NCBI GenBank assembly: GCA_030648055.1 | Contig: JAUSHI010000002.1 | Span: 178-64,177 of the forward strand | Direction: 5' to 3' | DNA: 64,000 nt | DNA from: a bacterium | GTDB taxonomy: Bacteria > Patescibacteriota > Minisyncoccia > Sungbacterales > SURF-37 | In this document: positions 9,651 through 56,304 of the stretch, piece after piece | How the letters are laid out: every line of letters starts with the position of its first letter | How positions within the stretch are numbered: the stretch's first letter is position 1 | Notes under the pieces: generated by a model | Seen by the model: only the letters and a program-made list of their open reading frames with translations | Databases searched by the model: none | What the model was told of the DNA's origin: nothing | Translations under genes and position numbers: made by a program

Positions 9651-9995
9651 CGCACCCTCCTTATATATGTAAATGTTCTGCCTTCGGTATAGCAAGGAAA
9701 TTCGTTTTCGGCAATGCGGGAAAAAATAAAAATCATCCGTTTTTATTCGGCGTTTTATAGAGATAAAACTTATCCACAGCTAGCGTTGCGCCTCGTGCCG
9801 CTTGGGATATAATAGATATGAAGCACCTTCGAGAGGAGTTTTCGCAAAGCAGGCCTCGCAGAGCAAGGCAATTCCAGAAAGCCAAGCACTCCGATTGCTT
9901 AGCAAAGACTCTTTTCACTTCACCAGCTCATTTACACCCACAACAACCAACAACCATAGGGCAGCAAACGCTGTCCTCCTTTTTTATATTTTTTG

Positions 9996-35311: not shown

Positions 35312-36670
35312 TTAAAACGCGCTTTCTTCAGAATTCTTCGCAAGGTCGTAAAAACTCACCGTGTTTTCATCAAATCCAAGCTCAATACTACCGGTCGGGC
35401 CGTTTCTATGTTTGGCGATAATAATTTCAGCAATGCCTTTCTTTTCCATGTTCTTTTTGGCAAGGTCGGGGCGATAAATAAACATAACCACATCGGCATC
35501 CTGTTCAATTGAGCCCGACTCTCTCAAGTCGGAAAGTTTTGGAACCGCGTCCTGGCGCATTTCTACCGCGCGCGAAAGCTGGGATATGGCAAGCACCGGC
35601 AGATTAAGCTCTTTGGCGAGGGCCTTCAGCGACCGCGATATTTCGGACACTTCCTGCACCCTGTTTTCGGAGCGGTCAGAGCCCTGTATCAGTTGAAGAT
35701 AGTCAACAATGACGAGGCCGAGCTTTTTTTCCTGCGCCTGCAGGCGGCGGGCCATTGCGCGAATTTGCATTACGGTCGGCGAGGCAACATCGTCCAAAAA
35801 GATCGGCGCTTTGGAAAGAGTGTTCATCGCTTTTTGAATTTCGCCCAAATCGTCATCGGAAAGATTTCCAGCTCTTAATTTCCACAAATCAACTCCGGCC
35901 TCGGAGGCGAGCAATCTGTCAATGAGCTGGTCTTTGGACATTTCAAGCGAAAACACGCCGACGGGGATATTATTTTTCGCGGCCCTTCGCGCGATATCAA
36001 GCGCGAGAGTTGTTTTGCCCAAGCTCGGCCGCGCGGCGAGCACCACAAGGTCGGACTTTTGAAGGCCGGACAATTTTTTATCAAGGTCAATGAAGCCCGT
36101 CTCAACTCCACGGTACTTATGTTTTCCCGATTGCATATCCTCAATTCTTAGCCAGGCGGCCTCCAGCACTTCTTTTACATGGAGAAAGGCTTGTTGCAGA
36201 GAATTTTGCGAGATGCCGAATATTTTTTGTTCAGCCTCGTCTAGTAGTTTTTCAATGTCTCCTTTTTCGTCGTAAGCGATTTCCGAAATGTGTGATGCCG
36301 CGGAAATAAGGTCGCGGTGGATGCGTTTTCTTTGCACGACTTTCGCCCAGTGGTTGACGCTGGATGACGTGGGCACGGTGTTTACAAGGGATGTGAGGTA
36401 AGTCATGCCTCCGACCGTTTCAAGTTCTTTTGTTTCTTTAAGGCGGCTCTTTACACTGACCACATCTATCGGTTCACTTTTTTCAGCGAGGTCAAGCATC
36501 GCCTTGTATATTAATTGATGGGTCGGCTTATAGAAATCAACCGGTTGGAGTAATCCAAGAATGCGGAAAATAGCTTCTTTATCAAGCATAAGCGCGCCGA
36601 GGACGGACATTTCGGCGTCTATATTTTGGGGCGGAATCCGCACCCCTATTTTTTCTAAATCTCGAGCCAT
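35312..36670 (-). CDS. dnaB: replicative DNA helicase DnaB
   Basis: PPQNIDAEMSVLGA, Walker A LAARPSLGKTTLAL, IVDYLQLI and SQLSRAVE. The start MARDLEK is at 36670. Confidence 0.92.
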   Translation of the reverse strand: MARDLEKIGVRIPPQNIDAEMSVLGALMLDKEAIFRILGLLQPVDFYKPTHQLIYKAMLDLAEKSEPIDVVSVKSRLKETKELETVGGMTYLTSLVNTVPTSSSVNHWAKVVQRKRIHRDLISAASHISEIAYDEKGDIEKLLDEAEQKIFGISQNSLQQAFLHVKEVLEAAWLRIEDMQSGKHKYRGVETGFIDLDKKLSGLQKSDLVVLAARPSLGKTTLALDIARRAAKNNIPVGVFSLEMSKDQLIDRLLASEAGVDLWKLRAGNLSDDDLGEIQKAMNTLSKAPIFLDDVASPTVMQIRAMARRLQAQEKKLGLVIVDYLQLIQGSDRSENRVQEVSEISRSLKALAKELNLPVLAISQLSRAVEMRQDAVPKLSDLRESGSIEQDADVVMFIYRPDLAKKNMEKKGIAEIIIAKHRNGPTGSIELGFDENTVSFYDLAKNSEESAF

Positions 36671-36885
36671 GAATATATTATACTCTACGTTAAGAGCGCG
36701 AATCAGCGCAAGGTTTATTGTCTGGGTATAAAGTGTGGGTGGCTTAATGTTCATATAACATCCAGTGGCTTGACTTATCATTGGCATATGCTATCCTAAT
36801 GCAAGTTCTTAAGGTACCGCACGGCTCGTCAATAAGGCGGGTTATGGATCGGTGCCACAATTAAATAAAAAGAAAGGAGTTGTTG

Positions 36886-37662
36886 ATGAATGGTTTCATG
36901 CAGTGGTTCAGGGAAAAGAAAAAGGAAACGCTCACCGCGCTTGCGTTGACGGTTTTCTTAGGCGTAACGGTGGGGCCGTTTCTTGCCGCACGTTTGTATG
37001 GTTTCGCAACCGATCTTCTCGGCACCGTAGTCGCGTTACTCGTGCTCGCCGGAATCATTGTTCTCACGCCAACCATACTTTATCGGATTTCTCTTTTGGC
37101 GTATCGCGACAAGCAGAGAGCTATTGAAAAAGATCCAACAGCGGCTCTCATGATTGATCTTAAGGGGTTTCGTGAAGATGTTGCTGAGGGCGAAAAGACA
37201 CTTAGCGCGTTTGACGGCGATATCGCCGCAATCGATGAAGTACTGCGGGTCAGGGCCAAACATTTGAGGCCTGAAGACGTTGCCTTTTTCAAAGAGCAAC
37301 AGAGGGTGTTGGTTGAGGACCGCGGAACTTTCGAGCGCGGGCTTACAGAGAATTGTCACGAGCTCGGGGAATTTGAAGCCGAAGTCGTGCGAGCCGGTGT
37401 CATGCAGGATATCGGCAATCGGATGCAGAAGGCGGCTGACCGTTTGGCGCCAACTCATAAGCGAGGTATGGAGAGCGATGAGACTCTTACTGCTCTTCGG
37501 GCTTTGGCCAGCAGGGTGGCATCCGCCCGTTCTCAGCTCAGAATAAGTCTTGAGCGGAGTACGCTTGCAGTGCTTCAGCTTCCGGCCGGAGGGAATGTTT
37601 CGGTTTTTGAACTTCCCAGTCAGAAGCCTCGGGTTCTGGTTCAGCGTAATCCAACACCGTAG
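36886..37662 (+). CDS. hypothetical 2-TM protein with helical C-terminal domain (G+C-rich island gene 1)
   Basis: The ATG is preceded by AAAGGAG. Two N-terminal TM helices, then a charged helical region of about 170 aa. Confidence 0.6.
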   Translation: MNGFMQWFREKKKETLTALALTVFLGVTVGPFLAARLYGFATDLLGTVVALLVLAGIIVLTPTILYRISLLAYRDKQRAIEKDPTAALMIDLKGFREDVAEGEKTLSAFDGDIAAIDEVLRVRAKHLRPEDVAFFKEQQRVLVEDRGTFERGLTENCHELGEFEAEVVRAGVMQDIGNRMQKAADRLAPTHKRGMESDETLTALRALASRVASARSQLRISLERSTLAVLQLPAGGNVSVFELPSQKPRVLVQRNPTP

Positions 37663-37677
37663 GAAGGAGGTGACACC

Positions 37678-37830
37678 ATGCGGCGAATCGTAGCCATTGG
37701 TATTCTCGTCTTTGTTGTTCTGGCCGGAATCGCGTTTCTTGTTCTTCGTGACGACGGTAGTTCGTCCAGTTCGCGTTCGGCGCCTTCGGCTCCTGCCGGT
37801 GGCGGGCTCAAGGACTTCCGCGTTCCGTAG
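37678..37830 (+). CDS. small single-TM protein (50 aa), not in the ORF track
   Basis: The ATG is preceded by GGAAGGAGG (7-nt spacing). MRRIVAIGILVFVVLAGIAFLVL.. The third-position G+C bias is consistent with its neighbours. Confidence 0.45.
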   Translation: MRRIVAIGILVFVVLAGIAFLVLRDDGSSSSSRSAPSAPAGGGLKDFRVP

Positions 37831-37892
37831 TTCCAAACGCGGCGCTCGGAAACGGTCTTGCAGTTAACCTCTAACAAGAAAGGGAGGAACTC

Positions 37893-38864
37893 ATGAAGCT
37901 GACGAAGATCATGTTTGTGGCGGTTCTCGCCGTGGCGATCATCTCCATCGGTTTCGCCGACGCTCAAGTTCTGACGAAGCTTCGCATGGCTTCGGGCGGA
38001 GAGGGCGGGACCTATTACGTGATGGCCAATAACATGGCCACCTACTGCGGTGAAGGTCTCGCTCTTGATGTGCAGGCAACGGGAGGTTCGGACGACAACG
38101 TCGAGCGTCTGATCAACAACAAGGCCGATGTGGCGATCGTGCAGAAGGACATTCTCTTCAAGCGGGCCAAGTTCAACAACGACGCGGCCGTGAAGAACTT
38201 TCTCGCGGTCATGCCGCTTCACTACGAGGCGATGCACGTCGTGGTGCTCGAGAAATCGGGCATCGTGAAGTTCAGCGACCTCGGCGCGATGAAAGGCCGT
38301 TTTTACGGCGGTAGTCCCGGCAAGAAAGTCGGCGCTTACGGTGGTTCCATCGAATCGGCCGAGATAGTCAAGGCGATGAGTGATGTCGCCTATGAAATCG
38401 TGGTCGTTGAAAACCAGAAAGCGGCAGTGGCTGCTCTAAATAGTGGGCAGATTGACGCAATTTTGGCGATGGGTGGCACTCCACTAAAGTGGGTCGGTGA
38501 AGAGCTGAAGCGCGGTCAGCACCGGCTTGTCCAGTTCGACGTGCCGATTGACAAGGTCGCGGGCGCCTACAGGAAGGCGAACGTCACGTACACCAGGCTC
38601 GGCGCTAACGCCGTGCCAACGATTTCGACGGACGCCGTGCTCATCACCCGCAACTTCACCACTGCGGAGAAGGTCCGGGCGGTATCGCTTCTTCGCAAGT
38701 GCGTCTGGAGCGAGCTCACCCGGATGCAGGAAGCTGACGATACCCATGGCCAGTGGCAGAATGTCCAGAAGGACACGCAGGTTGAGGGGTGGTCGTGGTT
38801 TGCAGGAATGCAGGTTCAGTGGCCGTCCGGTGGCGGAAGCGCGCCGGTTCCGAAGAGGAAGTAA
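37893..38864 (+). CDS. TAXI-family TRAP-type solute-binding protein (orphan, no permease nearby)
   Basis: Signal peptide. ASGGEGGTYYVMANNMA...ATGGSDDNVERLINNKADVAIVQKD..MPLHYEAMHVVV fits the TAXI (TIGR02122-like) signature. A strong SD AAAGGGAGG precedes the ATG. Confidence 0.75.
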   Translation: MKLTKIMFVAVLAVAIISIGFADAQVLTKLRMASGGEGGTYYVMANNMATYCGEGLALDVQATGGSDDNVERLINNKADVAIVQKDILFKRAKFNNDAAVKNFLAVMPLHYEAMHVVVLEKSGIVKFSDLGAMKGRFYGGSPGKKVGAYGGSIESAEIVKAMSDVAYEIVVVENQKAAVAALNSGQIDAILAMGGTPLKWVGEELKRGQHRLVQFDVPIDKVAGAYRKANVTYTRLGANAVPTISTDAVLITRNFTTAEKVRAVSLLRKCVWSELTRMQEADDTHGQWQNVQKDTQVEGWSWFAGMQVQWPSGGGSAPVPKRK

Positions 38865-38884
38865 TAATTCGCCGTAAACACGGC

Positions 38885-38920
38885 AAAAGCGCGTGGGGAA
38901 ACCATCCCACGCGCGTTTTT
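38885..38920 (+). terminator. intrinsic terminator closing the island
   Basis: AAAAGCGCGTGGG-GAAACCAT-CCCACGCGCGTTTTT. Confidence 0.7.
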
Positions 38921-38955
38921 ATTTCTCTATTTTTTTAGAAATTTACGGAATATAT

Positions 38956-40359
38956 TTAATTTTTATTTATTTTTGGTCCTTGCGGCGCATCTTCAATTAA
39001 AAACCCCATTTTTTTTATTTTTTCACGGATTTTGTCGGCCTCTTTCCATTTTTTTTCTTTGCGTAGCTCTTCGCGTTCGCTAACGAGATTTTGAACAGCT
39101 TCAGGAATAGTAGCTCTTGGAGATGGCCTGTTGAATTTTAGGCCGAGCACTTTATCAAAATCAAAAACAGTCTGCCGGATAAGGAGCGCTCCGCGACCGG
39201 TTAAAAGATTTTTATCAAACAAAGCATTGCCGTAGCGCAAAAGTTCGTTTAATACGGCAAGCGCTTTGGGTGTGTTAAGGTCGTCGGATACGGCCGATGA
39301 GAAATCTCTTTGAGAGGTAATGATTACCTTAAGCGTTTCGTTCTCGTCCTTGAGTGATCCTTTATAAGGGCCGCGGTCTATTCGTTCAAGCGAATTTAAA
39401 ATGCCAAGGCGGGCATGCTTTGAAGCCTCAAGCGAGGTCCATGTAAAATTAAGTTGTGTTCGGTAATGCGCGCCGAGGATTAAGTAGCGGAAATCAATCG
39501 GGTCGTAATTTTTGGCCTCAAGGGCGCGAAGCGTAAATACGTTGCCTAGCGACTTGGACATTTTTCTGCCATCTACTAGCAAGTGCTCACCTTCAATAAA
39601 ATATTTAGCAAATGGTTTTCCGGTAGCGCCTTCAGATTGGGCGATTTCGTTTTCGTGGTGGGGGAATAGCAAATCAACTCCGCCGGCGTGTATGTCAAAA
39701 GTGTTTCCAAGGTATTTCATTGACATGGACGAGCATTCAATATGCCAGCCCGGACGCCCGGCCCCGTATGGCGCTGACCATGACGGTTCTCCCGCCTTTT
39801 TTATTTTCCACAAAGCAAAATCTCGCGCCTCGTTTTTGGTATATTCATCAGCGGCAACCCTTGTTCCGGTTTTAAGCCCGCTTTTTTTAAGCCGCGAAAG
39901 TTTTCCGTAAGGCCGGAACTTAGAAATATCAAAATAAACCCCACCCTCGGTTTTATAGGCCAGCTTCTTTTTGAGGAGTAAATTAATCAGTTTTATCATG
40001 TCGGGAATATGAGCGGTGGCTTTGGGATATTTAGTTGCTGGAATCAGATTGAGCCTTTTTGTGTCTTTTAAAAATTCGCGGGCATAGAAACTTGTGAACT
40101 CTTTCAGTGTTTTTCCGGCCTTAATTGAGCCGCGGATGGTTTTATCGTCAACATCCGTCAGGTTCATGATGTGCGTAACTTTATAGCCGGAGCGTTCAAG
40201 GACTCTCCGCAATATGTCTTCAAAAATAAAAGTGCGCAGATTACCTATGTGGGCGTAGTTGTAGACCGTCGGACCGCAGGTATAAAGACCAACTCGCGCC
40301 TTGCGGATGGGCTGAAAAATTTCTTTTTTGCGGGTAAGGTAATTGTAGAGTTTTAGCAT
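38956..40359 (-). CDS. cysS: cysteine--tRNA ligase
   Basis: YTCGPTVYNYAHIGN (HIGH), KMSKSLGN (KMSKS), WHIECS. Confidence 0.96.
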   Translation of the reverse strand: MLKLYNYLTRKKEIFQPIRKARVGLYTCGPTVYNYAHIGNLRTFIFEDILRRVLERSGYKVTHIMNLTDVDDKTIRGSIKAGKTLKEFTSFYAREFLKDTKRLNLIPATKYPKATAHIPDMIKLINLLLKKKLAYKTEGGVYFDISKFRPYGKLSRLKKSGLKTGTRVAADEYTKNEARDFALWKIKKAGEPSWSAPYGAGRPGWHIECSSMSMKYLGNTFDIHAGGVDLLFPHHENEIAQSEGATGKPFAKYFIEGEHLLVDGRKMSKSLGNVFTLRALEAKNYDPIDFRYLILGAHYRTQLNFTWTSLEASKHARLGILNSLERIDRGPYKGSLKDENETLKVIITSQRDFSSAVSDDLNTPKALAVLNELLRYGNALFDKNLLTGRGALLIRQTVFDFDKVLGLKFNRPSPRATIPEAVQNLVSEREELRKEKKWKEADKIREKIKKMGFLIEDAPQGPKINKN

Positions 40360-40467
40360 GGATCACTGAACATGAAGCATAAAGCAATGAAGCATCAACA
40401 GGTGTCTTTATTTCCTCCTCCATGTCAAGCTCCATGTTTTATGTTACATGTTTCAGGCTTTAAGATG

Positions 40468-41379
40468 TTATATCCATTTTTTCTTTTTGAAAATGCCGAG
40501 AATTGTAAGCGCGGTTGTCGCGAGGATGCCGAGTATAATCCAGAAATCAGCAGGATGACCGGCAAGGGGATTTGAGACGGTGTTTGAGACAAGCAGTGTT
40601 GCTAAGACCGCCAGCGGGAATGTCATGAAAGCCATGACGGTAAGGGTTTTCATGACGTCGCTTTGTTTGATGTTCAAAAGCGTGGTGTTGGTCTCATAGA
40701 GAGCGTCAAGCGTTTCTTTGTGGTTTTCAAGAAGCCCCCAGAGTTTTTGGTATACGCCAGCCAAGTCTTCCAAAAAAGGAAGCACGTCGCTTGAGAAGAG
40801 TGATTGGGCCTGCGCGGCAAGCGATGTTAGAGTTATTTCCTGCGGTTTTAGAGAGCGGCGAAAATCAATAATGTCCCTGCCGACAACGGAAATCTCCTTG
40901 ACCACTTCACGCTCTTTTCCTGAAAATATTTCTTCTTCAATTATGGAAATTCGTTCTTGAATGTGGTCAAGCTCTCTCATGGAAAATTCGTAGAAGTTGC
41001 TGATCAGATAGTACAAAAGATGCATGGTGTTTTTTGAGGCGTAAAGTTCTTTGCACGATTTGTCTATAGCGCATTTTTTGAAAAAATCTTCCAGCGGCGG
41101 AATTGGTTCAAAAGAGACGGTTATCAGTTCCTTTTTTGTAAGTATAAAATCAATCTCGCGTGGGTAAGTTTTACGTTCCGTTTCGTCAAAAATCGGGAAG
41201 TGGAGTACGAGATAAAGATATCCGTCGTATTTTTGGACTTTCGGGCGGATGGTCGGCTTCATTAGCTCGGCAAGGACAAGTTCGTGGAAATTAAAATGCT
41301 CTCTCAACCAGTTGATGTTTTCTTTGGTGGGGCGGTAGATGTTGTGCCACACCACGGCTTTGCTTTTTATGGTTTCCAT
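40468..41379 (-). CDS. corA: CorA-family divalent cation transporter
   Basis: 303 aa with the CorA cytoplasmic domain layout and two C-terminal TM helices. The loop motif is MAFMTFP in place of the canonical YGMNF. Confidence 0.75.
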   Translation of the reverse strand: METIKSKAVVWHNIYRPTKENINWLREHFNFHELVLAELMKPTIRPKVQKYDGYLYLVLHFPIFDETERKTYPREIDFILTKKELITVSFEPIPPLEDFFKKCAIDKSCKELYASKNTMHLLYYLISNFYEFSMRELDHIQERISIIEEEIFSGKEREVVKEISVVGRDIIDFRRSLKPQEITLTSLAAQAQSLFSSDVLPFLEDLAGVYQKLWGLLENHKETLDALYETNTTLLNIKQSDVMKTLTVMAFMTFPLAVLATLLVSNTVSNPLAGHPADFWIILGILATTALTILGIFKKKKWI

Positions 41380-41530
41380 AATTCTTTAAATTTTGAGTTT
41401 AATGGACGGAAAAATAATTAAGAGGTCCATATTCAAATTTTACTATAAGGGCTATTATTCCGCAAAGAAAGTAGCGAGGCGGGCTTAAACGAAACTCCAT
41501 ATGCTGGTTTGAAGGTATCTTTAAGAGCTG

Positions 41531-41557
41531 TTAGCACTCTATTGACATGACTGCTAA
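41531..41557 (+). promoter_or_regulatory. CIRCE operator (HrcA binding site) overlapping the hrcA promoter
   Basis: TTAGCACTC-N9-GACTGCTAA versus the consensus TTAGCACTC-N9-GAGTGCTAA (1 mismatch). TTGACA (41542-47), N16, TACAAT (41564-69). Confidence 0.85.
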
Positions 41558-41590
41558 CCGGAGTACAATGGGGGAGGTATAAATTATTAC

Positions 41591-42298
41591 ATGGTTACTG
41601 AACGCCAAAAAGCCATATTAAACGCTATTGTTCGGGAGTATGTTTCCACAGCCGAGCCGGTTTCTTCAGGTGAGCTTGTAAAGAAGTATAGAATGCCTTA
41701 TAGCTCGGCAACGGTAAGAAACGAGCTTCTGTCTTTGGACAAAGAAGGCCTCACTCTTCAGCCGCATACTTCCGCAGGCCGTATTCCAACTGACAAGGGC
41801 TACAGGTTTTTTATCAGTGAAAACATTCCCGATAAAAAAGCGGATAAGAAAATTGAAAAATCGTTTCGCAATTTGCGTGAAATTGAGGACGATTTTGATT
41901 TTTTGCGCCAAGCCAGCCGTATGCTTGCGCATTTTTCAGGAGAGTTCAGTATGGCCGGTTTTTCCGGAAAGGGCATGCTTTATAAGTCAGGGATAGCTGA
42001 AGCGTTTAACGATCCTGAATTTGCCGATGGGGCCAGAATGCACGAATTCGGCGAGCTGGTGGATTTTCTTGACGAAGGATTTAAGAATTTTTTTGAACCG
42101 GAAGATATTAAGGAGCCGAGAGTATTCATAGGCGAAGAAAATCCAATTCGCGAGGCGAGGAATTATACGATGATCGTTTCAAGCGCGCCCACACCTTTCG
42201 GTGAAGACGGAATTTTCGGGATTCTCGGTCCGCGAAGAATGGATTACAATAAAAATCTTGCCCTTTTAAGAGCAATGCAAAAACTTTTTAACGATTAA
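41591..42298 (+). CDS. hrcA: heat-inducible repressor HrcA (short form, 235 aa)
   Basis: ERQKAILNAIVREYVSTAEPVSSGELVKKY..SSATVRNELLSLDKEGL..PHTSAGRIPTDKGYRFF. Confidence 0.85.
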   Translation: MVTERQKAILNAIVREYVSTAEPVSSGELVKKYRMPYSSATVRNELLSLDKEGLTLQPHTSAGRIPTDKGYRFFISENIPDKKADKKIEKSFRNLREIEDDFDFLRQASRMLAHFSGEFSMAGFSGKGMLYKSGIAEAFNDPEFADGARMHEFGELVDFLDEGFKNFFEPEDIKEPRVFIGEENPIREARNYTMIVSSAPTPFGEDGIFGILGPRRMDYNKNLALLRAMQKLFND

Positions 42299-42313
42299 TT
42301 TTTAATATATATA

Positions 42314-42847
42314 ATGAGTAAAGATAACGAAGAAAAAACAGAAATAGTTCCTGACGAGGAATTTGAAGCGGCAGACGCAATGGGTAAGGTAAAAAAACTG
42401 AAAGACGAATTGAAGAAGTGCGACGCCGAAAAGAAAGATTATCTTGACGGCTGGCAGAGGGCGAAAGCTGACCATATCAACTACCGGAAAGACGAGGGGA
42501 AGCGTTTTGAAGATATGGCGCGATTCGTAACCGCGGGATTTGCTGATGATATTCTGCCAGTGCTTGATAGTTTTGACTTAGCGCTTTCGCATGGGTTTTC
42601 ATCAGAGGCGCAAAAAGGTGTGTTAATGATACGGGCTCAATTTGGGGATGTGCTAAAGAGGCGAGGCGTCACCGAGATAAAGGTTGAAGCGGGAGAGGAA
42701 TTTAATCCCGCGCGCCATGAGAGTATCGGCGAGGTTGAATCGGAATATCCCGAGGGGCGAGTGGCCGAGGCAGTGCAGAAGGGATATTTTATCGGGGAAA
42801 GGGTTTTGCGTCCGGTAAGAGTGAGGATTGCGAAACATGGGGCATAG
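42314..42847 (+). CDS. grpE: nucleotide exchange factor GrpE
   Basis: YLDGWQRAKADHINYRKD...FNPARHESIG..GYFIGERVLRPVRV. Confidence 0.9.
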   Translation: MSKDNEEKTEIVPDEEFEAADAMGKVKKLKDELKKCDAEKKDYLDGWQRAKADHINYRKDEGKRFEDMARFVTAGFADDILPVLDSFDLALSHGFSSEAQKGVLMIRAQFGDVLKRRGVTEIKVEAGEEFNPARHESIGEVESEYPEGRVAEAVQKGYFIGERVLRPVRVRIAKHGA

Positions 42848-42899
42848 AGCATAAAACATGAATCATAAAGTATAAAAGATAATTTAAATAAAATATATT

Positions 42900-44840
42900 A
42901 TGTCTAAGATATTAGGAATAGATTTGGGGACAACAAATTCGGCGATGGCGATTATTGAAAGCGGGGAGCCGAAAATAATTGAAAATAATGAAGGCAATAG
43001 AACCACGCCTTCTATTGTCGCGACAACCAAAGTGGGAGAGCGTTTGGCGGGGCTTCTTGCCAAGCGTCAGGCGGTGACAAATCCCAAGGACACGCTTTTT
43101 TCCATAAAGCGGTTGATTGGCCGCAAATTTAATGATGCTGAAGTGAAGCGCGACAAGGCCTGGCTTCCCTATGAAATTCATGAATCCGCCAATGGCGGGG
43201 TTGAAATAAAAACAGGAGATAAGTGGTTTAGACCAGAAGAAATTTCCGCGATGGTTTTGCAAAAGTTAAAGCAGGACGCGGAAGAAAAAACCGGAGAAAA
43301 AATAACCGAGGCGGTAATCACTGTTCCGGCTTATTTTGACGACTCACAAAGGAAAGCGACGCAAGCCGCCGGAGAAATAGCAGGGCTGAAAGTCCGTAGA
43401 ATTTTGAACGAGCCCACAGCGGCCGCGCTTGCCTACGGTTTCAATAAGAAAAAAGATGAGCAGATCGTGGTATACGATTTCGGAGGCGGGACTTTTGATC
43501 TTTCTGTTCTTGAGGTTACCGCGGACACGATTGAAGTTAAGGCGGTGGGAGGCGATACGCATTTGGGTGGGGATGATTTTGACCAGCGGATTATCAAATA
43601 CATCGCCGATGAATTTAAAAAAGACCAGGGTATTGATCTCGCTAAAGATGTTTTAGCGCTTCAACGCCTTAAAGAAGCGGCCGAGAGGGCAAAGCACGAG
43701 CTTTCGTCAACGGTTGAGACGGAAATCAATATCCCTTTTATTACTTCGGATGCTTCGGGCCCAAGACATTTAGTAATGAAATTTACGCGGGCTAAATTGG
43801 AAGAACTTGTGGGCGACATGATAGAAAAATCGGTAAATATAACCAGACAAGTGGTGAAGGACTCGGGTTTTGCTCTAGCTGATATTGAAGAAGTAATTCT
43901 TGTCGGAGGGCAAACTAGAATGCCCGCAATTCAGGAAGCGGTTAAAAAACTTTTCGGCAAAGAGCCGAATAGAACCATTAACCCGGATGAAGTGGTTGCG
44001 ATGGGGGCCGCGGTGCAGGCCGGAATTTTGCAGGGTGACGTTAAAGATGTGTTGCTTCTTGACGTTACTCCTTTAAGTTTGGGCATAGAGACATTGGGGG
44101 GCGTTATGACGAGAGTTATTGAACACAATACGACAGTTCCTACAGCGAAATCGCAGATTTTTTCAACCGCGTCCGATAGCCAGCCACAGGTTGAAATTCA
44201 CGTATTGCAGGGAGAGCGCGAAATGGCAACAGATAACAAAACACTCGCCCGATTTATTTTGGATGGACTTCCTCCCTCTCCGCGAGGCGTGCCACAGATT
44301 GAGGTGACTTTTGATATTGATGTCAACGGAGTTCTTTCGGTGAAAGCCAAAGACAAAGCGACTAATCGCGAACAGTCGGTGCGTATTGAGGCCTCAGCCA
44401 GTCTTTCTAAAGAAGATATTGAGAAAATGAAAAAAGATGCCGAGTTGCATGCCGAAGAAGACAGAAAAAAGAAAGAAACGGTTGAGACCAAAAACATAGC
44501 TGACGCCATGGTTTATTCGGTTGAAAAAGCTCTTCGCGACGCGGGTGATAAAGTTCCGGCGGAAACCAAAAAAGATATTGAGGAAAAAATTGAAGCGCTT
44601 AAGAAAGTAAAAGACGGCGGCGATAATGAGGCCATAAAAAAGGCCGCCCAAGAGCTTTCGGTTGCTTCGCAAAAGATCGGTGAGCTATTATATAAGAAGT
44701 CCACCGAAGGCGGCACTAACTCTGGCGGAGAAGACACTAAAGATAAGAAAGACGAGAATGTGAAAGAGGCGGAATTTTCCGAAGAAGATGGATCCGCCTC
44801 TGGCGGAGAAGAAAAGAAAGACGACTCGGAATCCCAATAA
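42900..44840 (+). CDS. dnaK: chaperone DnaK (Hsp70)
   Basis: [28 protein letters not shown], over the full 646 aa. Confidence 0.98.
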
Positions 44841-45090
44841 AAATTTAATTCGGATTTGGACAAAATCGCCGCGCATGCTTCGCAAAATGTCGCTTAAAAA
44901 TTTAAACTCAACCGCGCCTATGGCGCGGGATTCAAACAATAAATTTTTCAGATTTTGCTCGCATGCTCTGGCTCATTGTTCACCAAATCCTCGAAATGAA
45001 TTTTTATTGGCATGCCTCGTTGGCGGGGAGATTGACGATTGGAAAAAAATAAAATAGCAGTTTTGTGTCATGCTATAGGACAGCAAGGAA

Positions 45091-45306
45091 TTAGATATCC
45101 TTGCGCTTCAACCAGATGAGCTCGGAATCCCACCCAATAGAAGCTGTGACCATGAGTTCCTCGAAAGGAACCTCAGGAAACTCTTTATTGGCGGCCATGA
45201 CTATCTCGGCGAGGGCTGGAAAGCCTCGACCATACTTGTTACTTTCCCAACGAAGTTTCTTTGGTGCCGGCAACGGGCGTGGATCCGGAGTCACTTCATA
45301 GGCCAT
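45091..45306 (-). CDS. small hypothetical protein (71 aa)
   Basis: The ATG is preceded by AAAAGGAGGATTAACC. It lies between dnaK and dnaJ on the opposite strand. Confidence 0.5.
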   Translation of the reverse strand: MAYEVTPDPRPLPAPKKLRWESNKYGRGFPALAEIVMAANKEFPEVPFEELMVTASIGWDSELIWLKRKDI

Positions 45307-45346
45307 GGTTAATCCTCCTTTTCTCGAGTTTGTGCTAAAAACAGTA

Positions 45347-46288
45347 ATGAGTCAAGCCACTTTCTATAAAGAAATAATCATCGCGGTTTTAGCGGTAGCA
45401 ACAGGAATTGCTAACGCCTATTTTTGGAAAGTTTTGATTTTTTCCGGAAGTTACTCAAGCCCCACTATTTTTTCAATTCCCGCCGCCCTGCTTTTTCTTT
45501 TCGCGATTTTCTTTTCGTTTTTAGCGCTTTTTGGCGTGAGCCGTACTTTGGGACTTATGGCAATTGCTATTGTATCCGTCGGGTCTTTTCTTTTTATAAC
45601 GGCCGGAACCGTAGCTTTTGTAGGAATCGTTTTGTCGTTTTTTGGTTTTCAGTGGGCGTATTCAAGAATCCGGAATGAAGCGAAGCTTTCGGTTTCGTTT
45701 AGTCTTTCTAAAATTCTGAGACAGGGTTTGCCACTGTTTTTTACCGCTATCGCCGTTATGGTTTCCGTGTTTTATTTTTCATCCATAAGCCAAGAAAAGA
45801 ATCAGACATTTTTGCCCAAAGCCGTATTTGAACTTTCTTTACCGCTCTTGCAGAATTCATTACAGGGCATAATTCCGGGGTTTAGGCCGGATGCCACGAT
45901 TGATCAGCTACTTATTGGGGCGGCCCAGAAACAGACCGGAAACGCGGTGGATATTTCAAAAGTCCCGAAAGACCAGCTTGAAAAATTTCTTCAGGAAGAG
46001 CGCGCGGCACTCAGTAAAGGATTGGGTGTGGCGGTTACCGGCAAAGAAAAAGCGGGCGATCTTCTTTATAATCTGGCAAATCAGAAACTGGAGGATTTTG
46101 TCGGCCCGTATAAACAATATCTTCCGTATTTAACGGCGTTTGGCTTTTTTCTGGCGGTAAAAGCGCTTACTCTGCCCTTATATTTTGTTACACTTATTCT
46201 TGTCTGGTTAGCGGTTCGGCTTCTGCTTGCCGTTAAGTTGTTAAAAAAAGAGATTGGCATGGTACAAACGGAAAAGGTGACATTGTAA
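45347..46288 (+). CDS. polytopic membrane protein, unknown function
   Basis: At least 6 predicted TM helices. I prefer the ATG at 45347 (MSQATFY..) over 45305, which would abut the divergent gene start. Confidence 0.6.
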   Translation: MSQATFYKEIIIAVLAVATGIANAYFWKVLIFSGSYSSPTIFSIPAALLFLFAIFFSFLALFGVSRTLGLMAIAIVSVGSFLFITAGTVAFVGIVLSFFGFQWAYSRIRNEAKLSVSFSLSKILRQGLPLFFTAIAVMVSVFYFSSISQEKNQTFLPKAVFELSLPLLQNSLQGIIPGFRPDATIDQLLIGAAQKQTGNAVDISKVPKDQLEKFLQEERAALSKGLGVAVTGKEKAGDLLYNLANQKLEDFVGPYKQYLPYLTAFGFFLAVKALTLPLYFVTLILVWLAVRLLLAVKLLKKEIGMVQTEKVTL

Positions 46289-46432
46289 GTTGAGGTACGG
46301 CACTTCTTTTTAGTTTTACACCCGGTAGAACGGCGGCGCGATAGTATTTGAGGGTCTGGCTATTCGCCACCGCGCGCCGCACCATGGATTACTTAATTAA
46401 TGGCGATTCATTAGTTGTACAAAAGTAGTATA

Positions 46433-46516
46433 GTAAAATTGGGGGGGATGCTCATTTTTGTAGCTACTCGCCCCATTTATAAACAAAAATGGCAAAAGAT
46501 TATTACAAAATTTTAG
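46433..46516 (+). promoter_or_regulatory. repeat element C (right half only) with mini-ORF (22 codons) overlapping the dnaJ start
   Basis: GTAAAATTGGGGGGGATGCTCAT. The mini-ORF 46448-46516 (MLIFVATRPIY..) overlaps the dnaJ ATG out of frame. I found no matching left arm. Confidence 0.5.
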
Positions 46517-47571
46517 GTGTCCCGAGGAACGCTTCTAAGGAAGATGTAAAACATGCTTATAGAAAGCTGGCGCATTTACATCACCCCGATAAAGCAGGTG
46601 GCAACGAGGCGAAGTTTAAAGAAATTAACGAGGCCTATCAGGTGCTGGGAGATGAAAAGAAGCGTTCACAGTACGACCAATTCGGGCGGGTGTTTGAGGG
46701 GGGCGGCGGAAGTCCTTTTGGCCAAGGCGGGTTTAGTTTTGGAGAAGAGTTTCGGGGTTTCGGCGATTTTGACTTTTCAGATATTTTTGAAGATGTTTTG
46801 GGCGGGATGGGTTTTGCCGGGGGGAAACGCGAGCCGCATTCAAAAAAAGGAAGAGATATACAAATTGATTTGGAAATTCCTTTTGAAGAAATGATTTTTG
46901 GTGGCAAGCACGAAGTATCGTTGCAGAAACTTGGGAAGTGCGAACGTTGCGGAGGGACAGGGGCAGAGGCCGGCTCAAAGATGGTTACGTGCAATACCTG
47001 CCATGGCTCCGGAAAGGTTGAGAAAATCCAACGGACTATTTTGGGTGTGTTTTCGCAAGTGAGCATTTGTTCAACCTGCAATGGTAAGGGCGAGGTGCCT
47101 GAAGTAACATGCAAAAATTGCGGAGGCAGGGGAGTTCTTCGCGCGGAGGATCGTATTGAAATTTTTGTGCCGGCCGGAGTTAATGGTAATGAGCTTCTGA
47201 AAGTTTCTGGAAAAGGCGAGGCGTCAGTTACTGGAGGCGTGCCGGGCGATCTTTTTGTGAAAATTCACGTGATGTCTTCAAAAATTTATAAAAGGCAGAG
47301 TAACGATGTAATTATGATGCTTTCGGTGAAATTTACCGACGCGGCTTTGGGGGCGAAGGTTGATTTGGGAACTCCTGACGGTAAAATCGTGATGAAAATT
47401 CCTGAAGGCACGGAGTCCGGAGATATTTTAAAAGTTCGCGGCAAGGGCGTTCCGCACCTTTCGGGGTACGGCAGGGGAGATCTTTTGATTGAGATTAAAG
47501 TTGAAACGCCCAAGAAACTTTCGCGCAAAGCAAAAGAGATGATTGAAAAATTAAAAGAAGAAGGAGTTTAA
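46489..47571 (+). CDS. dnaJ: chaperone DnaJ
   Basis: J domain with HPD (LAHLHHPDK), a G/F region, and four CxxCxGxG zinc motifs. Confidence 0.96.
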   Translation: MAKDYYKILGVPRNASKEDVKHAYRKLAHLHHPDKAGGNEAKFKEINEAYQVLGDEKKRSQYDQFGRVFEGGGGSPFGQGGFSFGEEFRGFGDFDFSDIFEDVLGGMGFAGGKREPHSKKGRDIQIDLEIPFEEMIFGGKHEVSLQKLGKCERCGGTGAEAGSKMVTCNTCHGSGKVEKIQRTILGVFSQVSICSTCNGKGEVPEVTCKNCGGRGVLRAEDRIEIFVPAGVNGNELLKVSGKGEASVTGGVPGDLFVKIHVMSSKIYKRQSNDVIMMLSVKFTDAALGAKVDLGTPDGKIVMKIPEGTESGDILKVRGKGVPHLSGYGRGDLLIEIKVETPKKLSRKAKEMIEKLKEEGV

Positions 47572-47650
47572 ACGTGGCTGTAAAATTCGCAAAACTCCGG
47601 CGTGTTTTGATAATTGCGCTTGCTATGGTTTTTTATTTCTTTGTAGTTTG

Positions 47651-47717
47651 TTCATTCCAACATTCTCTCTCTTTCGCGCGAGGCTTCGGACGGGCAAGGT
47701 AAGAATGTTGGAATGAA
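47651..47717. repeat. palindrome family copy with a 35-nt insertion at its centre
   Basis: The arms TTCATTCCAACATTCT (47651-66) and AGAATGTTGGAATGAA (47702-17) are separated by CTCTCTTTCGCGCGAGGCTTCGGACGGGCAAGGTA. Confidence 0.8.
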
Positions 47718-48093
47718 AAATGGGCGGGGCAGATGGTTGAGGGCGCTGTGCCGGATAACAAGAACACTCCGCAGTATTGCGGAGTGTTTTGAAATTCAGC
47801 ACCTTTCTGTCATTTCTTGTCTTATCGGATTTATTATTTTCGGCGCTTTGCTTTCCCTTTTTTTGCTTTTTTTGCCATTTTGATTTTTAGATTTAAATGA
47901 GCTAATTAATAAATTTATTCGGGAGCTATTTCCCTCGGCCTTTGGCATAAGTATACCATACTTTTATTGCAATTTTATTTTTTGCAACGCAATGTGTGGA
48001 TAACTTAAGGACGTTTGATTTTTTTCAAAAGCAAGTTATAATTGTTTTGCCCTCAGTTTTTGAAATAAAGATAAATTTTTTACGATTTTTTAC

Positions 48094-48214
48094 GCGCCCA
48101 TAGCTCAGTTGGGTGAGAATCCGTTTAAATAGGATTCTCACGGGCATTGCGAGCAGTCCCGACGTTTTGTCGGGACAGCACAGCACCATGCCCCGGAAGA
48201 GCAGCTCCCTTTTT
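48094..48214 (+). pseudogene. tRNA-Lys 5' fragment (positions 1 to 36) carrying an 86-nt hairpin-rich insertion in the D loop
   Basis: 48094-48112 equals 48536-48554, and 48199-48213 equals 48557-48571 of the intact tRNA-Lys. The insertion 48113-48198 contains GTGAGAATCC..GGATTCTCAC and GTCCCGAC-GTTTT-GTCGGGAC hairpins. Similarity stops after anticodon TTT. Confidence 0.7.
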
Positions 48215-48270
48215 CAGCCAGAGGCTGATCCGCCTTTGGCGGAAAGGAGAAGACCGATTTCAAAAAGCGT

Positions 48271-54511: not shown

Positions 54512-55363
54512 ATGAAGATTCTGAAATTCCCATGGGAAGCGGGGGGCGGGGCGAAAAGCATCGGTTCAAGTTACGGGCCTGATGCGATTGAGACCCAGTT
54601 CAATAAGTACCCGTGGCGGTGTTCTGAAAGCGGAGTTCCGGCGCGTGATGTTCAGTTTTTGGATGTAAAGGCCGTGCAGAGCAGTTCAATGCATCGAGCG
54701 TTCGGGGTTGGGGTACAAGCTATTCTTAACCATGAATCTTCGCTCGCCGTGCTTTCCGGAGATAATTCGTGCAGTTTTTACACGGTAATGAACGTTGCCA
54801 AGCGCTTTCCAGACCCGCAACTTGTGGTGCTGGACGCGCATCTTGATGCTTGCGATACCAAACACGACGCGCACGCGAGCTGGGTGCGGCGGCTTTGGGA
54901 GAACGACATCGTGCGTCCGGAGAAAACCATTTTTTTTGGAATTCGCGACGCTGAAGCCGAGGAGCTCTCTTACGCGAAAGAGAAGGGGGCAATTATTTAT
55001 CTATGCCGAAATCTCTTCATCAATGCTGATATGGCGCGCATTGTTTTGGGGCTTGAGACCACCATGCGCGTTGATACGTCTTCAGCTCTTATACTGGTTG
55101 TTGATATAGATGTGGTTGACCCCTCGCAGGCGCCAGCTACTGGAGTGCTACGCGCCCCCGGCCTTGATCTTAGACAGGTCCTTTCTATTATCCGTGCCTT
55201 TGGTGAGCTTCATTTTCCAGTGAAAGTTGGCGAGATTTGCGAAGTGATTCCCGAAGAGGGGAATATGATGCGGCCGCCGTGCGACAAGCGCCCGGACCCC
55301 ACGGGACTCACTGTGCTTGCCACGGAGGCCATTCTTCGGGAAATGATTTGTTCTTTTGCTTAA
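54512..55363 (+). CDS. arginase/agmatinase/formiminoglutamase-family (ureohydrolase) protein
   Basis: DAHLDACD and VVDIDVVDP metal motifs are present. The usual GGDHS is SGDNS here. Confidence 0.7.
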   Translation: MKILKFPWEAGGGAKSIGSSYGPDAIETQFNKYPWRCSESGVPARDVQFLDVKAVQSSSMHRAFGVGVQAILNHESSLAVLSGDNSCSFYTVMNVAKRFPDPQLVVLDAHLDACDTKHDAHASWVRRLWENDIVRPEKTIFFGIRDAEAEELSYAKEKGAIIYLCRNLFINADMARIVLGLETTMRVDTSSALILVVDIDVVDPSQAPATGVLRAPGLDLRQVLSIIRAFGELHFPVKVGEICEVIPEEGNMMRPPCDKRPDPTGLTVLATEAILREMICSFA

Positions 55364-55422: not shown

Positions 55423-55450
55423 TTGACAAATTTTGTCAGTTTGCTATAAT
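55423..55450 (+). promoter_or_regulatory. near-consensus sigma-70 promoter with palindromic -35 region
   Basis: TTGACA-N16-TATAAT. TGACAAATTTTGTCA forms an imperfect palindrome over the -35 region. Confidence 0.65.
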
Positions 55451-55482
55451 GTGGTTAAAATTCGTAGCATTAGGAAGGGAGA

Positions 55483-55686
55483 GTGGAAACCGTGGAGTTG
55501 ACAATGGATGGTCATGTTGTCGGCGAGTGCGATGAGGACATTTTCGAGATCGTGGTGGCCTACTTGGCCGATGGGCGTTCGCAGGCAGATGTCGCCAAGG
55601 AGCTTCTGGCCTCCGGCGTTCCGCATGCGCTTGATGTTGTTGTGAACGCAAAGCGTGTGCTCAAGGAGCGCGGTATCCTGGTGTAA
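55483..55686 (+). CDS. small acidic hypothetical protein (67 aa), G+C-rich cassette gene 1
   Basis: GTG start preceded by AGGAAGGGAGA. High third-position G+C. Confidence 0.5.
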   Translation: METVELTMDGHVVGECDEDIFEIVVAYLADGRSQADVAKELLASGVPHALDVVVNAKRVLKERGILV

Positions 55687-55719
55687 CAACATCCACGCGA
55701 GAGAAAGGTGGTGAATGCC

Positions 55720-55929
55720 ATGCAGATTCGCAGACAGCTTCGTGCAAGTTCGGATGCGTTCGCCAAGGACCGCCGGCTCGCGGTGTGCCCCGAGGAGAAC
55801 ACGCACCGCGGACTCGGCAAGGTGTGCGGACTCGGGTACACTCATTCCAAGTATGTCCGCACGCGTTTCAAGTCCCGCGCGCGGCACCACGGGACGGCGC
55901 CACGCCACACCAAGAAGGGCGGCCAGTAG
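55720..55929 (+). CDS. small basic hypothetical protein (69 aa), G+C-rich cassette gene 2
   Basis: The ATG is preceded by AAAGGTGG. Of the three overlapping plus-strand frames, this one has the strong third-position G/C bias. Confidence 0.45.
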   Translation: MQIRRQLRASSDAFAKDRRLAVCPEENTHRGLGKVCGLGYTHSKYVRTRFKSRARHHGTAPRHTKKGGQ

Positions 55930-56304
55930 TCTGTCGCAAAAGGGGATCATGCACCCCCGGCGCTCAAAGACCAAACGGTCAATGAGCGTCATTTTTATTT
56001 ATTCGTCTAAATTTTTATAGAGTATCAAATATTCTTGTTGGTCTAATTCGCGCGAATAGTGGAATAAGACCGGATGTAAATAAAATTTAGCAACAAATAA
56101 ATAGCCCAGCCCTCTATGCTCTCAGAAATACCGCTAGTTTCTAAAAGCGCGTAAATATTTTTGCTATGTAATATTATATTGCAAACTGCTTAGAGGGCTG
56201 GGTGAACAACCGCGTATACCGCAAGCTTGTGTGATATCGCATCGCTTGCGGTGCAGTTGTTCATTGTTTCAAAAGATGTTATTTTTGTTAGGTACTCGCA
56301 ATTT

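Follow-up and report, generated by a model that had tools for sequence, protein, structure and literature searches.

A horizontally acquired three-gene cassette with a TAXI-type binding protein in a Patescibacteria genome, and its relatives in phages

What an extracytoplasmic binding protein of the TAXI type does at a locus that offers it no recognisable permease is the question raised by a 2.1-kb island in a Patescibacteria (candidate phyla radiation, CPR) bacterium. The island lies between dnaB and cysS in a 64-kb stretch of contig JAUSHI010000002.1, which was analysed as a whole and is called the window here. It comprises three genes on the forward strand: a gene for a 258-aa protein with two predicted transmembrane (TM) helices (36886-37662; open reading frame, ORF, and TM prediction), a gene for a 50-aa small membrane peptide (37678-37830; ORF and TM prediction), and a gene for a 323-aa TAXI solute-binding protein (37893-38864; PF16868 and TIGR02122 matches). 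The island is a horizontally acquired, self-contained transcription unit (36770-38925). The trio is one copy of a widespread phage-associated mobile module, carried also by lytic jumbo phages of Ralstonia, Achromobacter and Vibrio. With a probability of about 0.55, the three proteins of this acquired module would jointly form a binding-protein-dependent membrane system without a TRAP (DctQM) permease.

The island as a foreign transcription unit

The island differs sharply in composition from its surroundings, as a sequence-only reading of the locus had claimed. In windows of 300 nt from 37200 to 38849 the G+C content is 0.547-0.630, compared with 0.42-0.50 on the dnaB side and 0.39-0.46 on the cysS side. 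Windows of 1 kb over the whole 64 kb have a mean of 0.451 (standard deviation, sd, 0.035), and the three consecutive ones that start at 37001, 37501 and 38001 (0.543-0.560) each exceed this mean by more than 2 sd. The hand counts made in that reading (38/60 G+C in the row at 38521, 18/60 at 39001) are exact, and the long antisense ORFs it mentioned are present as shadow ORFs of 266 and 198 aa. Codon usage sets the TAXI gene far apart from native genes: its G+C content at third codon positions (GC3) is 0.744, and theirs averages 0.460 (sd 0.060; z = 4.7). The 2-TM and peptide genes are only ~1.1 sd above that average. Three further G+C-rich ORFs coincide with the other 1-kb windows above 2 sd and may be additional foreign genes: an acyl-CoA dehydrogenase gene (8466-9695, reverse strand; GC 0.546, GC3 0.63), an arginase-family gene (54512-55363, forward strand; GC 0.526) with a strong GAAGGAGG Shine-Dalgarno (SD) site, and an ORF of 182 aa with no family match (55444-55992, reverse strand; GC 0.583, GC3 0.67).

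Each of the three island genes follows a strong SD site (AAAGGAG before the 2-TM gene, GGAAGGAGG before the peptide gene and AAAGGGAGG before the TAXI gene). An SD core of at least 4 nt at -18 to -4 was found for 3/3 island genes and for 4/39 native ORFs, the latter count being an approximation, since each native start was set mechanically to the first start codon in frame. The rarity of such sites among native genes makes the three perfect sites of the cassette conspicuous, and the earlier remark that they set the island apart from many native genes holds. Most native ORFs have A+T-rich leaders, and the organism seems little dependent on SD-led initiation.

The flanking genes are native. On the left lies dnaB, the replicative helicase gene (35312-36787, reverse strand; Pfam DnaB_C, E 9e-104), and on the right cysS, the cysteinyl-tRNA synthetase gene (38956-40359, reverse strand; Pfam tRNA-synt_1e, E 9e-110). 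The best matches of the DnaB protein in 185,579 species genomes are from metagenome-assembled genomes (MAGs) of Patescibacteria, at identities of no more than 54%. In the closest CPR genomes (L020, L021, L024, L025 and L050; L numbers designate the loci compared) corA, cysS, dnaB and recR are co-directional, with a cysS-dnaB spacer of 200-1000 bp, and tblastn detected no TAXI or 2-TM homologue in 80 related loci. The window keeps corA, cysS, dnaB and recR, with the 2.1-kb unit placed between cysS and dnaB in the opposite orientation. Since these four genes are contiguous and the trio is absent in the nearest relatives, the island is an insertion. Its horizontal acquisition, previously called probable, is thus borne out by composition, by GC3 and by the empty locus of related CPR genomes. 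No integrase, transposase or recombinase gene lies within the unit, and there is no tRNA target beside the island, the nearest tRNAs being 10 kb away. Flanking repeats, whether direct or inverted, and nearby mobility genes were looked for without a convincing result; only A+T-rich chance repeats came up.

Predicted control elements frame the unit. A sigma-70-type promoter (TTGACT, 16 nt, TATCCT, with a TG extension) was located by consensus scan at 36770-36797 on the forward strand, and a TTGACT-16/17-nt-TAnnnT element stands at the equivalent place before the cassette in L004, L103, L104 and L010, which are different chromosomal loci. A few bases after the predicted transcript start, folding and covariation indicate a 5' leader stem-loop of ~44 nt (36813-36856, forward strand). 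The minimum free energy of 36805-36888 is -22.9 kcal/mol (z = -2.5). When the leaders of six cassettes are aligned, 86.5% of cells are paired, compared with 27-44% when the partner is slid, and both sides are altered in 8/16 pairs, a count drawn from these six sequences only. The leader has no match in Rfam at E <= 1. The stem-loop recurs at equivalent positions in L004, L010, L016, L103 and L104, and it could stabilise or regulate the mRNA. At the 3' end of the cassette (38868-38924, forward strand; terminator scan) a small hairpin (38868-38887) is followed by an intrinsic terminator, the stem of which (38889-38914) has 10 bp, including 8 G-C pairs, and leads into a T-run; the island is therefore closed by a terminator of its own, in agreement with the earlier claim. 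Homologous terminators of the form GCGCGTGGG...CCCACGCGC plus T-run end the cassette in L006, L103, L104, L016 and L010. Judged by these predicted elements, the trio forms an autonomous cassette in low-GC genomes, equipped with a conserved promoter, leader hairpin and terminator of its own.

The trio in phages and in other genomes

The order 2-TM gene, peptide gene, TAXI gene on one strand is fixed in the window, in L003, L004, L007-9, L010, L014, L016, L103 and L104, and in six cultured phages, namely Achromobacter phage Motura, Vibrio phages RYC, K406 and Va1, and Ralstonia phages RP12 and RsoM2USA. Exceptions are L002, where a methylase gene takes the place of the 2-TM gene, and phage phiRSL1, where the module is interrupted. 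A tblastn search of 50,697 phage records gave TAXI genes with 26-34% identity in 25 records. In the six phages named, a single-TM peptide gene precedes the TAXI gene, and a gene for a 243-308-aa protein with an N-terminal TM hairpin and coiled coil precedes the peptide gene; the trios are ORF195-194-193 in RP12, QDH83683-83685 in Motura and VCPH_00047-00045 in RYC. In phiRSL1 the peptide gene ORF100 and the TAXI gene ORF101 are adjacent, with the 2-TM gene ORF096 three genes upstream. When the 2-TM protein was searched by tblastn in INPHARED, 7/7 matches fell within 2 kb of a TAXI match. The phage records annotate these genes only as 'TRAP transporter solute receptor like', as 'transporter substrate-binding domain-containing protein' or as hypothetical. 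At none of the phage and cellular loci examined does the module have a DctQ/M or GltS gene next to it. The sequence-only reading had pointed out that the TAXI protein follows two small membrane proteins and has no TRAP partner; this linkage is kept across phages and several bacterial lineages.

On phage-like contigs the G+C content is 0.60-0.65 and the trio is compositionally native. L003 carries a tape-measure gene and the set 264 aa, 48 aa and TAXI; L007-9 carry genes for Acb2/Tad1-like, Thg1 and DUF5131 proteins together with 239 aa, 45 aa and TAXI; a 40-kb JGI contig (3300071358) carries integrase, NAMPT and Nudix genes together with 247 aa, 47 aa and TAXI; L002 carries amidase and RecT genes, and its DNA methylase gene precedes those for a 45-aa peptide and TAXI. 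In low-GC genomes the cassette has a G+C content of 0.50-0.61, compared with 0.42-0.52 in the flanks, and each copy occupies a different locus: between PAP2 phosphatase and UbiE-type methyltransferase genes in L004/L006, upstream of rpsL-rpsG-fusA-tuf in L016/L017, between a proline-dehydrogenase-like gene and dnaG in L103/L104, and at another locus again in L010. Counted over low-GC genomes, G+C-rich cassettes of this module occupy at least five different loci. A more distant copy lies among ordinary chromosomal genes of a Terracidiphilus (Acidobacteriota) MAG (L014).

Several neighbours of the module deserve mention in their own right. Genes for NAD metabolism stand within one to three genes of it in phiRSL1 (L011 4413-6876; NMNAT/Nudix and pncB/NAMPT) and in RYC (L013 4413-6909; ribose-phosphate pyrophosphokinase, phosphatase and nicotinate phosphoribosyltransferase). 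On the JGI contig, Nudix, PRTase and NAMPT genes are 6-8 kb from the module. In P0113, a protein of the library, a 2-TM protein and part of NAMPT are fused in frame, implying that the two genes adjoin. In RP12 (L099 4888-6413) a WtpA-like tungstate/molybdate binding protein and a WtpB-like ABC permease, annotated as hypothetical, are encoded directly downstream of the trio; RP12 was reported to encode MoaA (PMC5468394). Polyamine synthesis genes are found near the module in Motura. About 2-4 kb upstream of the trio in L007 are encoded an Acb2/Tad1-hairpin protein (6133-6507), of a family of anti-CBASS/Thoeris sponges, and a Thg1-like protein.

Ratios of nonsynonymous to synonymous substitution (dN/dS) are low (TAXI gene, 0.09-0.21; 2-TM gene, 0.10-0.15; peptide gene, 0.19-0.53), so that all three genes are functional and under purifying selection. 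At synonymous sites the window copy is saturated, or nearly so, relative to all others (pS 0.59-0.80), and it is therefore not a recent transfer from any sampled source. L103 (1497-3469) and L104 (1923-3899) share their flanks, with DnaG 92% identical (dS 0.58), and carry cassettes with different 2-TM subtypes, TAXI proteins that are 72% identical (dS 1.15) and nearly the same peptide tail (NPLRDFKIP). Such divergence within shared flanks indicates that the cassette was replaced at that locus, or that recombination occurred within the module. A neighbour-joining tree, which carries no support values, puts the high-GC phage copies of TAXI in one clade nested among copies from low-GC genomes, with the cultured-phage and acidobacterial copies outside. 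With dS saturated and phage copies nested in this way, neither the tree nor dS singled out a donor lineage, which TAXI phylogeny had been expected to provide, or a direction of transfer. The G+C content of the island fits a donor pool of ~0.58-0.65, like that of the phage contigs.

The TAXI proteins of phages form a clade of their own across unrelated hosts and do not resemble the TAXI proteins of those hosts. Because the same clade occurs in phages of unrelated hosts, a docking partner should travel with the gene. No companions other than the peptide and the 2-TM protein are constant, and the three proteins would for that reason be expected to act together.

Predicted properties of the proteins

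The TAXI protein matches PF16868 NMT1_3 (E 1.9e-24; 87.2 bits, cut-off 27), passes TIGR02122 TRAP_TAXI marginally (85.2 bits, cut-off 84.35) and matches phrog_6856 (E 4.2e-32). Its AlphaFold2 (AF2) model has a predicted local distance difference test (pLDDT) score of 80, and its seven best PDB matches are all TAXI proteins (E 4e-15 to 7e-14, TM-score 0.56-0.70), although identity to solved TAXI proteins is only 16-20%. Sec export is predicted from an N-terminal hydrophobic signal (residues 6-24) with an Ala-rich end (GFA/DAQ), as judged without a dedicated signal-peptide predictor. Cys52 and Cys270 are invariant, and together with the export signal these two cysteines fit an extracytoplasmic location. 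In VcGluP of Vibrio cholerae, glutamate is contacted by Y45, S75, Q93, E125, Y200 and M201, of which Y45 and Q93 are critical (PMC11574862). The aligned residues of the window protein are Y41, S66, Q84, E112, A192 and M193. Equivalents of Y45, Q93 and E125 are kept in 25/25 cassette and phage TAXI proteins and that of S75 in most, while at the position of Y200 members of the close family have Ala and other copies Val, Ile, Met or Phe. This pattern argues for a retained small-ligand site that would accept an alpha-amino-acid-like head group, with a different side-chain pocket. Close homologues are rare, with only 17 (55-73% identity) among 5.8 billion clusters. A scan of IMG/VR and of GTDB representative genomes with the TAXI alignment gave no confirmed relative, and a metagenome scan gave one further locus only (L004/L005).

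The 258-aa protein has TM helices at residues 16-34 and 47-65, which form an N-terminal hairpin followed by ~170 aa of antiparallel coiled coil. Basic residues flank the hairpin on both sides, and by the positive-inside rule the coiled coil is predicted to be cytoplasmic (N-in, C-in). The AF2 model is purely helical: the TM hairpin is followed by two long helices in antiparallel arrangement, then by one more helix and a disordered tail; confidence averages a pLDDT of 65 and reaches ~90 over residues 90-160. The window protein matches phrog_27316 weakly (E 3.6e-5) because it belongs to a divergent subtype, of which five sequences are known; homologues beside other TAXI genes match at 1e-35 to 1e-40. 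For both phrog_27316 and phrog_6856 the listed function is 'unknown'. Among 1.84 billion representatives a profile search found 620 clusters at E <= 1e-3, of which 95 reach E <= 1e-30; almost all have 230-270 aa. In a fold search of BFVD the best match was the RP12 protein encoded beside the RP12 TAXI gene (E 5e-3).

Searches of Pfam, NCBIfam and PADLOC gave no match for the 2-TM protein, no related solved structure was found, and Foldseek against PDB returned nothing significant for its model. An affinity to bMERB, Vipp1 or BAR-type coiled coils, including a PspA/ESCRT-III-like reading, was rejected (Foldseek PDB E >= 0.1). Matches of the protein and 78 relatives to HBL, CEP63 and Holin-X, with one each to PspA and DctM, were regarded as scattered coiled-coil noise, and a PDB profile search returned de novo helix bundles and keratins, that is, generic coiled coils only. 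The SLATT-like or TelA-like fold proposed earlier fared no better: 0/78 family members match those Pfam families at E <= 0.01, and the fold matches have E > 0.1. One member from the representative library, P0075 (574 aa), continues into a signal-like hydrophobic segment and a beta-rich, non-TAXI domain of ~300 aa, a hint that exported proteins other than TAXI may be paired with the 2-TM platform.

The 50-aa peptide of the window begins with MRR and consists of a 20-residue TM helix (predicted at 4-22), a linker rich in Ser, Pro, Ala and Gly, and the C-terminal tail LKDFRVP. The plan is the same throughout the family: basic residues at the N-terminus, then a hydrophobic helix (~20 residues), then a linker enriched in Ser, Pro, Thr, Ala, Gly, Gln or Asn, and last a short tail. 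In the close family this tail reads L-[KR]-x-F-[RKT]-[VI]-P; in distant phage peptides it ends in aromatic or aliphatic residues (GYKL, KYKF, SSPF, NTFG). Most copies are 43-58 aa long, that of RsoM2USA 122 aa, and a peptide gene of this architecture lies directly upstream of the TAXI gene at every locus examined. The Ser/Pro/Gln-rich tail is predicted to lie outside the cell. A cleaved signalling pro-peptide was also considered and rated low, the hydrophobic segment of ~20 residues being anchor-like.

None of the multi-TM ORFs of the window encodes a DctQ/DctM or GltS protein, in accordance with the earlier statement that a TRAP permease partner is absent there; they encode FtsK, an FtsX/MacB-type permease, a P-type ATPase, a Na/Ca exchanger, a family-4 glycosyltransferase and one unknown protein. 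Elsewhere in the window (2957-6538, forward strand) a 1193-aa protein that combines a lamin-tail domain and a right-handed beta-helix region with a TM or signal segment at its N-terminus is probably a large CPR surface protein.

Proposed function and comparison with known systems

In the proposed mechanism the exported TAXI protein would close on a small ligand with an alpha-amino-acid-like head group and would be held at, and dock on, a three-helix membrane unit made up of the peptide and the 2-TM protein. The disordered tail of the peptide with its conserved C-terminal motif may act as tether or adaptor. The 2-TM protein would probably oligomerise through its coiled coil, and the oligomer would be the membrane partner. 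Capture or uptake of an amino-acid-like nutrient is put forward tentatively as the output, at clearly less than even odds; in infected cells it would benefit the replicating phage, and in the auxotrophic CPR cell it would be a means of scavenging. Uptake fits the metabolic neighbours in phages (WtpA/WtpB-like proteins in RP12, NAD salvage in phiRSL1, RYC and the JGI contig, polyamine synthesis in Motura) as well as retention by auxotrophic CPR cells. Ligand sensing or signalling is a rather unlikely output. Taken together, uptake and sensing, the two roles suggested in the sequence-only reading, would still be the likeliest kind of function. It is possible, if doubtful, that the module represents a new class, invented or spread by phages, in which TAXI feeds no carrier and acts through the peptide and the oligomeric 2-TM protein. 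Such a class could take the form of a channel gated by the binding protein, or of a surface sensor with the peptide tail (L-K/R-x-F-R/K-V/I-P-COOH) as tether or even ligand; phages would use the module in infection, and CPR and other bacteria would repeatedly have captured it as a plug-and-play cassette.

A number of points weigh against a joint membrane system. Co-occurrence is the sole ground on which the three proteins would be taken to act together. Three TM helices per protomer set are far too few for a carrier, so that uptake would need an oligomeric channel or an unlinked host permease. In L002 no 2-TM gene stands directly upstream, and the 2-TM partner may for that reason be dispensable. 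The model of the 2-TM protein, built from nine sequences, has no more than moderate confidence (mean pLDDT 65) and gave no informative fold match. The search for TRAP and GltS genes in the source genome covered the 64-kb window only. The neighbours with anti-defence roles (Lar, DNA methylase, Acb2/Tad1) are typical also of defence or exclusion genes, as are different cassette versions at the same locus in two related genomes. The argument from the pocket is weakly specific, since the conserved contact Tyr is present in 78% of all TAXI proteins (PMC11574862).

An unlikely, though not negligible, alternative is that an ordinary orphan TAXI protein feeds an unlinked TRAP-TAXI (DctQM) or GltS permease, with the peptide as a tether at most and the 2-TM protein as an accessory or unrelated product. 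The protein passes the family models and keeps its ligand residues, L002 lacks an adjacent 2-TM gene, inspection of the source genome extended to 64 kb, and orphan TRAP binding proteins are known (PMC12344293). A single host-independent phage clade, with ~20% identity to characterised TAXI proteins, is nevertheless a poor fit to docking on many host permeases. At the loci examined the peptide gene is always directly upstream and the 2-TM gene nearly always present, across unrelated phage hosts and several phyla, and the cassette moves as a unit with shared promoter and terminator. Cyanophage PstS is a precedent for a phage binding protein that uses the host permease and so speaks for an orphan, whereas CPR genomes are generally poor in such transporters, which speaks against one. 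An improbable alternative is a phage-derived envelope defence, in which superinfection exclusion or anti-phage action would block DNA entry or a receptor and which CPR and other bacteria would have domesticated. It would suit the accessory-region neighbours (Lar in phiRSL1, the DNA methyltransferase of L002, the Acb2/Tad1-like protein of L007, NAD-salvage genes), the patchy and rare distribution of the TAXI protein (the 17 close homologues and the lack of any confirmed in IMG/VR or GTDB representatives), the many different loci in cellular genomes and the turnover at the single locus represented by L103 and L104. It agrees less well with small-molecule pocket residues kept across the whole clade, with strongly purifying selection showing no sign of diversifying evolution, and with carriage by lytic jumbo phages, in which exclusion is less obviously useful; no model of a known system in PADLOC-DB matches the three window proteins at E <= 0.01, and one homologue gave coiled-coil noise only.

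Scavenging of NAD precursors, with TAXI binding nicotinate, nicotinamide or a related pyridine carboxylate for phage NAD+ salvage, is highly doubtful. CPR bacteria depend on salvage, and the salvage genes near the module in phiRSL1, RYC and the JGI contig, together with the P0113 fusion, point in this direction. However, no NAD gene lies beside the module in Motura, RP12, K406, Va1, RsoM2USA, L002, L003, L007 or any cellular cassette, that of the window among them, and the conserved Tyr, Gln and Glu are the set that binds the alpha-amino group of glutamate in VcGluP. Least probable is an artefact or a native origin, that is, a chimeric mis-assembly, or native DNA made G+C-rich by amino-acid composition. 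The contig does come from a MAG, checked at the level of assemblies only, but an independent Logan assembly of SRR13727527, which may rest on the same reads, equals window 35483-48233 with 0 mismatches through both junctions. Unrelated samples have also yielded low-GC genomes in which corresponding G+C-rich cassettes, their promoter and terminator homologous to those of the window, stand at other loci. Against this reading stand further the third codon positions, at which the G+C excess of the TAXI gene sits, and the empty locus of related genomes.

TAXI proteins are the least understood branch of TRAP transport, and the TAXI-GltS pair has already shown that unexpected membrane partners exist. 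New here are a phage-carried TAXI clade that includes cultured, genetically tractable jumbo phages of Ralstonia, Achromobacter and Vibrio; the strict link of TAXI to two small membrane proteins, one of them from a family of several hundred clusters without a Pfam entry; and a compact cassette, with promoter, leader and terminator, that has entered tiny CPR genomes several times. If the trio is a working unit, it would couple an extracytoplasmic binding protein to the membrane in a new way and add a new kind of auxiliary function in phages; it would also show, by a concrete case, that genes associated with phages shape the contact of ultra-small, host-dependent bacteria with their environment. 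Since cultured phages carry the module, it is directly testable. Among 8 million full texts no functional study of phage TAXI/TRAP binding genes was found, only annotation mentions; one such phage gene is merely listed in PMC5468394.

Compared with the TAXI-TRAP systems VcGluP-VcGluQM of Vibrio cholerae and TtGluBP of Thermus thermophilus, the window protein has the same TAXI Venus-flytrap fold, the same family models and the same Tyr, Ser, Gln, Glu and Met contacts. It differs in that the module has no linked fused DctQM, that Tyr200 is replaced by Ala, that the peptide always and the 2-TM protein almost always precede TAXI, and that its clade is phage-carried. In Bordetella pertussis the TAXI protein BP0403 is coupled genetically and functionally to GltS, a non-TRAP membrane partner (PMC12344293). 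That partner is a multi-helix elevator-type Na+/glutamate symporter, whereas the partners in the module have one and two TM helices, and the larger of them is mostly a cytoplasmic coiled coil. The defining membrane partner of either system is absent at the loci examined, and the module is therefore neither TAXI-TRAP nor TAXI-GltS. Membrane-anchored TAXI solute-binding proteins have reportedly been described by Roden et al. in 2023, to go by the title of that work in a reference list. The phage trios of RP12, Motura and RYC, and the interrupted one of phiRSL1, have the same architectures and sizes as that of the window and, phiRSL1 excepted, the same order, with homology at the level of profile models and folds and the same peptide design; they differ in that their TAXI proteins are 26-34% identical to it and that they lie inside long phage operons without private promoter, leader or terminator.

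In the arbitrium (AimP/AimR) and Phr/Rap systems a small pro-peptide gene stands beside the gene of its receptor, a cytoplasmic TPR protein. The module resembles these in having a 43-58-aa product with an N-terminal hydrophobic segment and a short conserved C-terminal motif, encoded beside a ligand-binding protein in phages. It differs in that the segment of ~20 residues is anchor-like, no processing site is evident, and the neighbour is an extracytoplasmic solute-binding protein. The PstS copies of cyanophages resemble host genes, use the host PstCAB permease and are presumed to raise nutrient acquisition in infection. They too are phage-carried binding proteins, whereas the TAXI clade described here is host-independent and travels with two membrane proteins of its own.

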